Shown piece after piece: positions 1,488 to 4,225 of a DNA stretch of 6,046 bases; positions within the stretch are counted from its first letter, which is position 1, and each line of letters starts with the position of its first letter. The stretch spans positions 1 to 6,046 of the IMG/VR virus record IMGVR_UViG_3300029219_000085. One strand, written 5' to 3'. Below the pieces are notes generated by a model. That model saw nothing but the letters and a program-made list of their open reading frames with translations, made no database searches and was not told the origin of the DNA. The position numbers and the translations under genes were made by a program. The DNA is from a virus.

Positions 1488-2887
1488 TCTTCGTCATCCC
1501 CCTCTCCATCATCTTGAATTTCTTCATTTAATAATTCCGTTGCTTCTTCTTCTGTAAAGCCGTATTGTTTCATAAAGTACATGATTTTCAATCTTGGAAT
1601 ATCAAATGTTAATGCGTCATTTCTTAACGCTTGTGCAGTGCTTTGCTTATCCTCGATATACGTATCGTCATAATCAATTGCAATGTCTAATGAATTGATA
1701 TTAAGCTTTCTTCCTTGTGTTAATTCGTAGAAGTACGCTATCGCTTGAATAATATCTTGAATATATGCAGTAGATTCTTTACGTTGTGAATTTACTTCTT
1801 TCATAGCGTCTTGATTCTCACCAATATATTCTGTCGCCGTTACGATTCTTCCACTTTCAAAGGTGTATTTCTTTGTACCGAATCCGAACATCATTGATAA
1901 AATACTTAACGCCGTTTCTAATGATTGAACAACTTCTGCCGTTCTGACTGTTGGATTGTATTCTTGCCATAACGCTTTTTCTTCCGGTAACTTGTCTCTA
2001 CCTAACTGAACAAATATCTTTTTCATTTGTGGATTCATCTTAATCTTTCCATTCTCGTCTTTCTGCATTAATGCTTCATTCACAAGAACGATTTTATCTG
2101 ATTTCAACAAATCACGATTCCACATTGTCATTGTTAAATCAATTGTTTTTAGTGGAGCGATTGCACTCCAAATCTTCGGTAAGCCGTACCCTTGCATTTG
2201 TAGATTGTTTACCTTGGCGTTTCTCATAATTGCAAACGGCTTAACCACATCTAATTGAACAATCTGAGCACGGTCTTTTATTTCTTCGCCTGTATCTTTA
2301 AAGTAATGTGTTTCTGCAATATATCTTTCGTCTTGTCCTTTTAAGAACATAACCATCACATATACTTTTTTTAGTTTCTCATAGTTTACGCCAACGAAAG
2401 CAACTTCCACAATTTCATCATTAATAACAGTTAATGGAAGGATATTCATTGAATCACAATAGTTGATTCTGATTTCTCCTCCACTGAATGTACCATCTTC
2501 ATAAATCTCGGCATTTGATACCGTCACATAAGCTCCTACCGTACCATTTGCAGACATTTGCTCAACTTGTTTTCTGTACATTACATCAAATCTATTCTTT
2601 GTTAGAATATCCGAAATAATGTCATTTGTTGTACTGTCCTCTGTTGCGTTTATATCTAGGATTTCAATTAGGTTTGCGTCATCTTCGCACAAACGCTTTG
2701 CAAAGTCTGTTTTATCTAGCGTGTATTCCTCGTTGTTCAACGTGTATGCCGTATGAAATTCTGTTTCGGTATTTGTGTACCACTTATTACACAATTCAAT
2801 AATCTCAATTGCGTTTGTATCTACATAATACCCTCTTTCGTTTAGGTAATTTTGAAACCACGGATTACGTGTGTTAGATGTTTCTAT
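1484..2887 (-). CDS. portal protein (SPP1 gp6-like), putative AUA start; the track ORF 1484..2794 is N-terminally truncated
   Basis: The track starts at an internal TTG (2794..2792). The frame is open back to the TerL stop TAA 2893..2891 and encodes EIETSNTRNPWFQNYLNERGYYVDTNAIEIIE before that TTG. This gives F..YL.ERGY.VD......I..W..WY.......FH followed by RLCEDDANLI, which matches the recalled conserved N-terminus of gp6-type portals (...ICEDWANLL). SD AAGGAGG (2900..2894) is followed by 6 nt and then ATA (2887..2885). There is no ATG, GTG or TTG in frame between 2890 and 2795. Confidence 0.8.
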   Translation of the reverse strand: METSNTRNPWFQNYLNERGYYVDTNAIEIIELCNKWYTNTETEFHTAYTLNNEEYTLDKTDFAKRLCEDDANLIEILDINATEDSTTNDIISDILTKNRFDVMYRKQVEQMSANGTVGAYVTVSNAEIYEDGTFSGGEIRINYCDSMNILPLTVINDEIVEVAFVGVNYEKLKKVYVMVMFLKGQDERYIAETHYFKDTGEEIKDRAQIVQLDVVKPFAIMRNAKVNNLQMQGYGLPKIWSAIAPLKTIDLTMTMWNRDLLKSDKIVLVNEALMQKDENGKIKMNPQMKKIFVQLGRDKLPEEKALWQEYNPTVRTAEVVQSLETALSILSMMFGFGTKKYTFESGRIVTATEYIGENQDAMKEVNSQRKESTAYIQDIIQAIAYFYELTQGRKLNINSLDIAIDYDDTYIEDKQSTAQALRNDALTFDIPRLKIMYFMKQYGFTEEEATELLNEEIQDDGEGDDEE

Positions 2888-2890
2888 TTC

Positions 2891-4225
2891 TTACCTCCTT
2901 AAATCTATATATCCACTATGTGTGATAAATGTGTAGCAGAACGAATCCCAATCATCATTGATATTGTTTACGTTCTCATCCTTTGGAATATCTTTCTTTT
3001 CATCCCATACTAATTCGCTCAATGCATTTATTAAATTCTTACAATGTTCTTCTATCTTTAACCTACCTGTAACAAGTAAGCTATCAACCGTTATAGGACG
3101 GTCTGTTAGCTCATTCTTCTTGACTGGTGCAATTATACTTCCATCTAATCCTTCGGCGTAAAAATAAGCTCTAAGCGTGTTTATAAGGGTATTAGAAGCA
3201 CTGTCCGGAAATATCCATTCTACATATCCGTAACATTCAATACAACGCTTATAGAACCTTACAAACGCTTTACAAAACTTTGTTGCGTCTATTGCGTTTG
3301 ACTTTGCCATATCTCCTTCATCAAGTGCCCACATATAATCCCAATCATTCGTAAATCCTGTTAAGTGCCATGAATATTTTGAACCGTTGTCTCCAAAGTC
3401 TACTCCTATAATTAAATGACTGAACCTTTTTCCTTGTTCTTTCATCTTCTCTTTTAAATGTTGATATTTGAATAGGTAAGGTTTGCAATTATTAGCAAAA
3501 TAAGGGAATACAAGTCCTTCGGCTTCTTCCCTTTGCCCTTTTATATCTCTTTTGTAATAAACGCTATTCTTATCGTATGATTTCAAAACCGTTCTTATCT
3601 GCTCATCACTTAAAGAATAATTGTCAACTAAGGTGATATGCCCATAGTTATAACCATATGTAGAATCTTTATTCTGTTGCTCCTCATGATACCTTAAGAA
3701 ATCTGTGTAATACCAATGATTCTTGCCTTTGGGGTTTAAATCATGAAATATCTTTCGATTACTTGACGCTATCGTTCTGTCCATTACTTCTTGTAAGAAT
3801 TCAATGCAACATAAATTTGCTTCGGTAATGTAAGCCATGCCGTATGAATAACCATGTATCGCATTCTCTGAGCCTTTCTTAGCACCACCGGCAAAGAATA
3901 CAACCTTTTCTCCCACCTTTGTGTTGATGTAATAACAATCTTTACCTTCATACTTCCCTACTTTGAATCTGTTAGCGAAATAGTTTTGCAAACCATATCC
4001 ATTACAATCTCCAATATTAACACGTGCAGATGATGTATCTGTTCCTGCTATTAAATGGAACTTATCCGGATGTGTTTCTAATGCGATACAAAAAGCGTAT
4101 GTATTGAGTACGTTCTTTCCTCCACGCTTGCCACCTTCTAATACATTAAGCCATGAATCAAATGTTCTTTTAAGATAAGTTAATTGCTTTTGATTGAAAG
4201 GCGCAGGCTTATTCAAAATCTTCAA
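2891..4225 (-). CDS. terL: terminase large subunit (PBSX/XtmB-like, Terminase_3 type)
   Basis: 444-aa ORF. It has a Walker-A-like LEGGKRGGKN near the N-terminus, a Walker-B-like MAYITEA, and nuclease-domain acidic motifs IGVDFGDNGS and NDDWDSFCY. The start is TTG 4225..4223, 18 nt after an in-frame TAG, with only a weak purine-rich SD (GAAAGAAG). It overlaps the TerS 3' end by 17 nt. Confidence 0.85.
   Translation of the reverse strand: MKILNKPAPFNQKQLTYLKRTFDSWLNVLEGGKRGGKNVLNTYAFCIALETHPDKFHLIAGTDTSSARVNIGDCNGYGLQNYFANRFKVGKYEGKDCYYINTKVGEKVVFFAGGAKKGSENAIHGYSYGMAYITEANLCCIEFLQEVMDRTIASSNRKIFHDLNPKGKNHWYYTDFLRYHEEQQNKDSTYGYNYGHITLVDNYSLSDEQIRTVLKSYDKNSVYYKRDIKGQREEAEGLVFPYFANNCKPYLFKYQHLKEKMKEQGKRFSHLIIGVDFGDNGSKYSWHLTGFTNDWDYMWALDEGDMAKSNAIDATKFCKAFVRFYKRCIECYGYVEWIFPDSASNTLINTLRAYFYAEGLDGSIIAPVKKNELTDRPITVDSLLVTGRLKIEEHCKNLINALSELVWDEKKDIPKDENVNNINDDWDSFCYTFITHSGYIDLRR

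Follow-up and report, generated by a model that had tools for sequence, protein, structure and literature searches.

How does translation of a gene begin when its conserved coding sequence opens without a canonical start codon? The question is raised by the portal gene of the IMG/VR virus record IMGVR_UViG_3300029219_000085, of which positions 1 to 6,046 were analyzed as a whole (hereafter the window: 6,046 bases, 34% G+C, with every gene on the minus strand). A first-pass annotation had placed the start of this gene at an ATA codon six bases past a Shine–Dalgarno (SD) sequence and had implicated a phage tRNA in its use. We find it very likely that the portal begins at the ATA at 2887-2885, a reading borne out by the position at which the protein family starts, by the SD-ATA and SD-ATG sites of relatives, and by covariation with the tRNA. 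The phage-encoded tRNA, which carries a UAU anticodon on an initiator-like body, is probably the initiator that reads this codon.

Evidence that the stretch skipped by gene callers belongs to the portal

On the minus strand, the junction between TerL and the portal reads GAT TTA AGG AGG TAA GAA ATA GAA ACA TCT AAC, in which the TerL stop, the ATA, and the portal open reading frame (ORF) share one common frame. The positions between 2900 and 2885 that the first-pass annotation had assigned to the SD, the TerL stop, and the ATA agree with this sequence. It had also described 31 codons without ATG, GTG, or TTG between the ATA and the first TTG; the absence of such codons in frame is correct, but the codons in between number 30, encoding ETSNTRNPWFQNYLNERGYYVDTNAIEIIE, and TTG 2794, the first in-frame canonical codon, lies 31 codons past the ATA. 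Its statement that no out-of-frame ATG exists nearby was mistaken, as one is found at 2826-2824, but this ATG is unable to rescue the portal because a TAG directly follows it. The in-frame ATT codons at 2809, 2803, and 2800 lack an SD, as does TTG 2794.

Among family profiles, the protein read from the ATA matched PHROG 533 (portal) at 2.2e-54, its residue 22 falling on position 27 of the profile, and also TIGR01542 (A118-type portal), its residue 61 falling on position 60. A database search returned 717 portal homologues, most of them 450-468 residues long and covering 94-99% of the ATA-numbered protein, and in the alignment the ATA position lies 0-8 residues from the start of the full-length homologues. 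Inside the stretch without a canonical start is the motif L-x-x-[RK]-G-Y-x-V-x-x-x-A-x-x-I-I. When 32 codons were compared between the window and an 83%-identical relative (L148), the differences at codon positions 1/2/3 amounted to 12/5/15, with 9 synonymous and 11 non-synonymous codon changes. Additionally, in an AlphaFold model built on the homologue alignment (mean predicted local distance difference test, pLDDT, of 76), residues 11-40 have a pLDDT of 83-89, with helices at 9-17 and 24-38, so that TTG 2794 (L33) falls within the second helix. These results support the proposal that the stretch between the ATA and TTG 2794 codes for the conserved portal N-terminus, which the first-pass annotation had made from the sequence; to the question that it had posed, whether the portal family begins at or after L2794, the profiles and homologues answer that it begins ~30 residues earlier.

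The competing view is that the gene callers are right: the portal would start at TTG 2794 or at a later codon, with the 93 bases upstream as an untranslated spacer. TTG 2794 is indeed the first canonical in-frame start and the one used by public predictions (P0001, 436 aa). This view is highly improbable given that the codon has no SD, that the stretch upstream stays open and is conserved as protein down to 47% identity with a coding substitution pattern, and that the confidently predicted helices and the family profiles both extend upstream of L33. The public gene calls of these portals, which start at a downstream TTG or ATG, are truncated by 13 to 78 residues.

The assignment as a gp6-type portal, also made by the first-pass annotation, stood in part. 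A Foldseek search with the portal model produced E values of ~1e-10 to the portal of 80alpha/SaPI1, SPP1 gp6 (7z4w_A, TM 0.56), and T7 gp8, the gene sits directly after TerL as the SPP1 Gp6-type position requires, and the precomputed assignment PF05133 (Gp6) is present on several of the homologues. The window protein itself matched no Pfam family at E <= 0.01, hence not PF05133, and the "Gp6-type" label therefore rests on fold and neighborhood and not on the Pfam model. A sequence search of the PDB with the portal family profile gave 0 matches, and the fold search was used instead.

Start codons of the portal gene across relatives

The scan of viral contigs yielded 79 loci, and the wider comparison comprised 148; a megablast of the whole window against GenBank phages returned 0 matches. 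Among independent contigs with a 96-100% identical portal, AAGGAGGTAA[G/A]AA-ATA was present in 38 of 38. The ATA recurs in more diverged portals, namely in group B (58% identity), with GGAGGTGGACTG-ATA-GAA giving IESYVQEYLQKLGY, in group C (56% identity), with GGGGTGATAGA-ATA-CAA giving IQNFITSFLAKKGY, and in a prophage of the isolate Amedibacillus sp. YH-ame6, with AAGGAGGTAACAACGA-ATA-AAA giving IKQCIKDYLAIQGY, which aligns residue for residue with the M of the ATG group. That ATG group, group D (47-50% identity), has the same gene layout and carries AAGGAGAAGAAA-ATG-GAA giving MEGCVKDFLQKKGY at the homologous codon, that is, AAGGAG-N6-ATG-GAA where the other lineages have SD-ATA. In distant portal lineages the homologous first codon is ATA, AGG, or ATG. 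A portal search of the GTDB species genomes found only relatives of <=49% identity, at least one of which (L145) appears to start with ATA, and a scan of the same set for the tRNA pattern found nothing.

A single-base difference would suffice for the ATA to be a sequencing or assembly error for ATG. The probability of this is negligible, and the idea is refuted by replication: the same ATA recurs across 38 independent contigs drawn from several metagenomes, an ENA contig, a Logan assembly, and an isolate genome have it too, and within one phage several genes show it. Another possibility is that there is no separate initiation at all: ribosomes would read through the TerL stop to give a TerL-portal fusion, or would re-initiate after termination regardless of the codon, since the portal frame also contains the TerL TAA, which precedes the ATA by only two codons. 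However, the frame of L148 opens exactly at the ATA, with a second in-frame stop (TAG) directly before it; the ATA starts of capsid, tail, and TerS genes are preceded by an intergenic spacer or an out-of-frame gene; and the ATG-start relatives show an ordinary start within the same gene layout, all of which renders this explanation exceedingly improbable.

Within the window, the pattern GGAGG-N4-9-ATA was found 3 times against 0.9 expected, a count that is not significant in itself because 15 of 200 shuffles reach 3. All three sites head long ORFs, right after the preceding stop. The weight for an ATA start hence comes from the position of the sites and from the comparison with relatives.

A UAU tRNA with an initiator-like body

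The tRNA gene of the window (Table 1) scored 49.1 bits with the Rfam tRNA model, which flagged its 1:72 pair as non-standard. A search of 5,426 complete Escherichia coli genomes with the tRNA gave matches of 78% identity, with a median of 4 per genome, as many as there are initiator genes; all of the listed matches are annotated as tRNA-Met, and the one that was examined belongs to the initiator cluster metZ-metW-metV, which mltA and amiC flank. The best matches in the phage database are likewise all annotated as tRNA-Met. The likeness to bacterial tRNAfMet (E. coli metZWV, metY) extends over the full length (78% identity) and includes an unpaired 1:72, A11:U24, and the segments GAGCAG..GUAGCUCGUCGG (D arm), CCGAAGGUCG, AGGUCG, CAAAUCC, and the end GCAACCA. 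The phage tRNA differs from it in having UAU and not CAU, U37 and not A37, U31·G39 and not G31-C39 (so that one of the three G-C pairs is lost), A1 and not C1, and unusual D and T loops, and in being phage-encoded. Elongator tRNAs have a pyrimidine at position 11 paired with a purine at 24, and the unpaired 1:72 of E. coli initiators serves to direct formylation, bars elongation with EF-Tu, and protects from peptidyl-tRNA hydrolase.

Thirteen UAU variants were collected from ATA-start lineages, those of group A (the window tRNA and its homologues in L011-L046) being recovered by blastn since ARAGORN misses most of them. In an alignment of 11 variants with E. coli metZ (12 sequences), the cloverleaf is 94.6% paired and 12 pairs have changed on both sides, a number reached by 0 of 500 shuffles. 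The anticodon stem has been fully rebuilt among the variants, from UCGG/CCGA to CUAG/CUAG to CCAG/CUGG, and U31·G39 closes the loop CU-UAU-UA, which is invariant in all UAU variants. A11:U24 is found in 12 of 12 aligned sequences, and 1:72 is unpaired in 12 of 12 (A·A, G·A, or C·A), the sole acceptor position that is never paired, next to pairs 2-7, which covary. Taken at the level of sequence, these features show that the window tRNA descends from a bacterial initiator tRNA whose anticodon was changed from CAU to UAU. The product is not a standard member of the initiator family, because it lacks the CAU anticodon and the complete set of three G-C pairs, nor is it an elongator tRNA-Ile(UAU), which would have a paired 1:72, a purine (t6A) at position 37, and a tRNA-Ile body where the phage tRNA has an unpaired 1:72, U37, and an initiator-like body.

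The T stem of the group-A tRNA is also bulged by one base, which is U, C, or A depending on the variant; in addition, G55 stands in place of U55, and the D loop has no G18G19. ARAGORN does not detect variants v1-v7, so that in most group-A phages the tRNA will escape standard annotation. In the window, and in L011 with the same layout, the tRNA lies between a sigma/ArpU-like regulator and the DUF6275 gene, upstream of the packaging module; this layout, after the sigma-like regulator and before a hairpin, would suit co-expression with a late-gene activator. The idea that it is a tRNA remnant of an attP site was rejected, as the tRNA is complete, covaries, and separates the regulatory module from the packaging module. 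At L008:9633-9709 (IMGVR_UViG_3300043595_000031, 62 kb), another UAU tRNA is encoded whose D and anticodon arms are initiator-like but which has A37 and G1·U72; it adjoins an odd tRNA-like gene for which ARAGORN calls the two-base anticodon "ga".

Correspondence between tRNA anticodon and start codon

For each locus, the portal start was taken to be whichever codon of a fixed candidate set stood at SD spacing, and it was then compared with the tRNA found in that locus. The anticodon UAU accompanied an ATA start in 39/39 loci, CCU an AGG start in 15/19, and CAU an ATG start in 32/34. The four CCU exceptions consist of two ATG starts, one artefact one codon before an AGG, and one locus without a call. 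The portal N-termini are homologous across the start types (M/R/I-E-x-C-V-K-x-[FY]-L), and all ATA-portal loci with ~5 kb or more of upstream sequence contain the tRNA, 2-8 kb upstream of the portal. Same-scaffold tRNAs with a CAU, CCU, or (by ARAGORN) CGC anticodon were found in Lachnospiraceae, Roseburia, and Acetatifactor genomes and in viral contigs.

The correspondence goes beyond the portal. In an ORF-anchored census with all-triplet controls, in which non-canonical triplets were counted if they followed a strong SD and no canonical start lay close by, ATA was the commonest such triplet in the UAU loci (125 vs 54 for the next in group A, 11 vs 2 in group B, 4 vs 3 in group C). In the ATG-start relatives it scored 10, ranked fourth, and was not enriched. 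AGG led the non-canonical triplets of the CCU loci (43 vs 13). In these sequence comparisons, the anticodon of the tRNA predicts the start codon of the portal and of other phage genes. The involvement of the phage tRNA in the portal start, as suggested by the first-pass annotation, thus gains support, at the level of sequence, from initiator ancestry combined with anticodon/start-codon covariation.

Position -1 is A in 48/58 distinct ATA starts against 139/256 ATG starts of the same loci (p = 5e-5) and in 38/48 AGG starts against 95/193 (p = 1.7e-4), p-values that are only indicative because the contexts are related by descent. U37 is common to the UAU and CCU tRNAs and absent from the CAU versions. 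GCA (Ala) is strongly favored as the second codon after the ATA and AGG starts of the UAU and CCU loci; for the ATA starts, +4 is G in 35/58, +5 is C in 26/58, and +6 is A in 43/58, and the ATG starts have A-rich second codons.

The CCU sister phages and prophages of Lachnospiraceae, which have the same tRNA scaffold with the loop CU-CCU-UA and a 1:72 mismatch, show SD-AGG on the portal, TerS, capsid, minor capsid, and tape measure genes. They are the loci L079, L083, L100, L103-L105, L107, L109, L112-L116, L118-L120, L123-L125, L127, L129, L131-L133, L137, L139, L144, and L149-L152, and in L149-L152 the acceptor stem AGCAGGA/UCCUGCA is the same as that of the window tRNA. ATG-start relatives (L056-L078, L082, L084-L087, L090, L093, L096, and others) encode an initiator-like tRNA with CAU and G1·A72, which is located in the structural module, some 2.5-6 kb downstream from where the portal starts. 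An initiator-like tRNA for which ARAGORN gives the anticodon CGC occurs at L080:8449-8523 and in L140, and no SD-GCG starts were found in these two loci. A phage-borne initiator tRNA seems to be ancestral to the whole phage group.

Weighing the initiator assignment

Several observations weigh against the phage tRNA acting as the initiator of these genes. The hallmark of three G-C pairs is incomplete, the window tRNA having G29-C41, G30-C40, and U31·G39, and variants v2-v11 together with the Amedibacillus tRNA (L147) having A-U, G-C, and U·G (C-G at 31-39 in v8), so that only G30-C40 is invariant. U37 is unusual for any tRNA, and the group-A tRNA, with a bulged T stem, the T loop UGCAAAU, and a D loop without GG, is missed by ARAGORN in most variants. 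The loci also share descent, and because of this relatedness the locus counts are not independent events; about five lineages with ATA can be told apart (the window type together with L148, group B, group C, L147, and perhaps L145), besides several with AGG. Internal AUA codons are normal in these phages (12-26 per 1000 codons, 18-34% of Ile codons), as would fit an elongator role. Finally, AUA behind an extended SD is used with the host initiator in Staphylococcus aureus infC, ccpN, and citZ, reaching 10-30% of the AUG output (PMC13009471).

The last two points define the most serious competitor, in which the host initiator (CAU) reads the ATA through a third-position mismatch tolerated by a long SD, 8 nt here (AAGGAGGT), and the phage tRNA is an ordinary helper for internal AUA Ile codons. 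We regard this account as unlikely. It leaves unexplained the initiator-like body with 1:72 unpaired in every variant, and it would place the most abundant virion proteins (major capsid, major tail) on a start of 10% efficiency. It also leaves unexplained the CCU version of the scaffold with AGG at the same start positions; the mismatch of AGG relative to AUG is in the middle position, which a CAU anticodon is expected to tolerate poorly. Moreover, the enrichment of A at -1 matches U37 of the phage tRNA. Assignment of the phage tRNA as the initiator reading the portal ATA is thus the probable interpretation.

Other genes with ATA or AGG starts and organization of the window

On the minus strand, the genes follow the order SSB C-terminus, small ORF, sigma-like regulator, tRNA, DUF6275 gene, TerS, TerL, portal, head protein, and further structural genes, and the features that bear on initiation are collected in Table 1. 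ATA starts are concentrated in packaging and virion genes, with few in genes of the replication module. The UAU and CCU loci use the same gene families, among them TerS (IAKGKYKEWLEP / RAKGKYQEWLEP), major capsid (IPNQIALAKTYVSNLDEVYK / RANTIQLAKNYTDLLDEVYR), a major-tail-like protein, and tape measure (IADGTLLFETKLD / RADGSLLFDTKLD). The TerS start is ATA in group C and in L147 and AGG in the CCU loci. The first codon flips between ATA and ATG among near-identical phages, as seen for the gene starting at 58-56 of the window and for IAGKQFTD (L011) versus MAGKQVTE (L001).

The prophage of the cultured isolate Amedibacillus sp. YH-ame6 (L147; GCA_053848845.1, JBSPEZ010000008.1) holds the complete system, with the UAU tRNA just upstream of TerS. 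In the gene calls of the assembly collection, at least TerS, portal, capsid, and tape measure start downstream of the SD-ATA, resulting in truncated proteins.

Two further observations concern neighboring genes of the window. A start-stop ORF (ATG TAA, 4600-4605, minus strand) lies between AAAGGGG and the ATA ATA of TerS, out of the TerS frame, and is conserved in relatives with the same TerS. The head-protein gene (phrog_1220) has a 14-nt deletion at ~1386-1392 relative to L001, L011, and L047, with the new junction GTC TAG T, which splits it into a 34-codon ORF and the ORF 692-1432; the broken gene is either a real pseudogene or an assembly error.

Table 1. Features of the window and start sites of the Amedibacillus prophage
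Feature	Position	Strand	Evidence or remark
Gene running off the window end, ATA start	56..58	-	AGGAGG, 7 nt, ATA GCT ATT GAA; position is ATA in 14 relatives, ATG in 4
Head-protein gene, ATA start (IATTYFPFVSRNGDR...)	1485..1487	-	Overlaps the portal stop as ATAG
Portal gene re-called from ATA, 467 aa + stop	1484..2887	-	PHROG 533, TIGR01542, AlphaFold model match to portals
TTG chosen by gene callers (P0001, 436 aa)	2792..2794	-	No SD; inside predicted helix; mis-called start
30 codons without canonical start, encoding conserved portal N-terminal helices	2795..2884	-	Alignment, pLDDT, substitution pattern
ATA, inferred portal start codon	2885..2887	-	6 nt past SD; A at -1
TerL stop TAA	2891..2893	-	Same frame as portal
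SD AAGGAGG, extends to AAGGAGGT (8 nt)	2894..2900	-	Within the last TerL codons; identical in 38/38 close relatives
TerS head ATA ATA (IIANGKVGRPNK...)	4593..4598	-	Follows AAAGGGG; TTG 4535 is the first canonical start; matches phrog_606 and 309; relatives conserve the site
DUF6275 gene	4620-4883	-	Between the tRNA and TerS
Terminator-like hairpin ACCGAG-CATTTGT-CTCGGT + T-run	4908..4926	-	Between tRNA and DUF6275 gene; sequence
Initiator-derived tRNA, anticodon UAU, A1·A72 mismatch, A11:U24, loop CU-UAU-UA, encoded CCA	5009..5084	-	ARAGORN; Rfam; E. coli metZWV match; covariation
Anticodon TAT (UAU), complementary to AUA	5050..5052	-	Loop CTTATTA same in all 13 UAU variants
Sigma-70 region-4-like regulator, 108 aa	5111-5437	-	tRNA lies just after
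Possible ATA start	5626..5628	-	GGAGGTG, 6 nt, ATA GAA ATG; ambiguous as a start because ATG lies two codons downstream
L147 sites	tRNA 7861-7936; TerS 7995; portal 9842; capsid 12944; tail 15545; tape measure 16992		SD-ATA on all five genes

Proposed mechanism and relation to known systems

In the mechanism that we propose, the strong SD AAGGAGG(U), six bases upstream, would set the AUA at 2887-2885 in the ribosomal P site, where it would be read by the phage-encoded tRNA (5084-5009). Because this tRNA retains an unpaired 1:72 and A11:U24, it most likely works in initiation and not in elongation; its expression, charging, formylation, and use in the P site are predicted from the sequence. U37 would probably pair with the A that usually occupies mRNA position -1 and so contribute one more pair, the fourth, beside three weak A-U pairs. 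The same tRNA may serve the other SD-ATA genes: in the window these are TerS, the head protein, and the gene starting at position 58, and relatives add the major capsid, major tail, and tape measure genes. By analogy with engineered anticodon mutants of tRNAfMet, as these are reported to behave, the first amino acid would likely be isoleucine.

To our knowledge, every cellular initiator tRNA carries the CAU anticodon, and non-AUG starts are read by this CAU initiator with a mismatch. Initiator mutants with GAU, GAC, and CUA anticodons have reportedly come from the Schulman and RajBhandary laboratories. Engineered initiators include an amber initiator (10.1101/2024.07.29.605542) and i-tRNA(AAC) (10.1101/2021.05.25.445580, 10.64898/2025.12.21.695813), which share with the phage tRNA the principle that a changed anticodon moves initiation to the complementary codon behind an SD. 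These are laboratory constructs, whereas the phage tRNA occurs in nature, is conserved in diverged phage lineages, and has co-evolved with the starts of many genes. The AUA/AUU starts of S. aureus infC, ccpN, citZ, and cvfC1 share the AUA behind an extended SD and the Bacillota-type ribosome-binding site, but they belong to single low-output regulatory genes without a dedicated tRNA, in contrast to the many phage genes, including major capsid and tail, that have a matching tRNA nearby (PMC13009471).

Two other systems are similar in part. tRNA-Ile(UAU), known in Mycoplasma mobile and in tilS suppressors of Bacillus subtilis, also reads AUA with UAU, but it does so on an elongator body with paired 1:72 and a purine at 37, unlike the initiator body of the phage tRNA. 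In crAss-like and Lak phages, phage-encoded suppressor tRNAs recode a stop codon that is concentrated in structural and late genes; here, too, a phage tRNA changes the meaning of a codon, with the difference that stop codons in elongation are affected there and a start codon in initiation here. No description of a natural non-CAU initiator in phages was found in the searchable literature, outside of which most subscription journals lie, so that an earlier description is possible.

Taken more broadly, we lean toward the view that temperate siphophages of gut Bacillota, with Erysipelotrichaceae and Lachnospiraceae hosts, carry a natural orthogonal initiation system. In this system, reassigned initiator tRNAs (UAU, CCU, and perhaps others) would have co-evolved with AUA or AGG starts of packaging and virion genes, aided by U37-A(-1) pairing, and virion translation would depend on the phage initiator and probably yield a non-methionine first residue. 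Control of structural-gene translation, that is, the gating of virion genes, and independence from the host initiator tRNA are two possible purposes. Defense nucleases are reported to be able to target the host initiator tRNA (PMC10264068).

For genome annotation, these phages expose a systematic error, as gene callers truncate portal, capsid, terminase, and tape-measure proteins, including those of an isolate genome at NCBI. For synthetic biology, the system would, if the proposal is true, offer a naturally optimized orthogonal pair of initiator and start codon, with U37, U31·G39, and A(-1) as features worth copying, and the prophage of Amedibacillus sp. YH-ame6 is a cultured system that carries the pair. 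For the biology of these viruses, a natural initiator with a reassigned anticodon and matching starts would represent a new form of viral decoding reprogramming, the initiation counterpart of stop-codon recoding.

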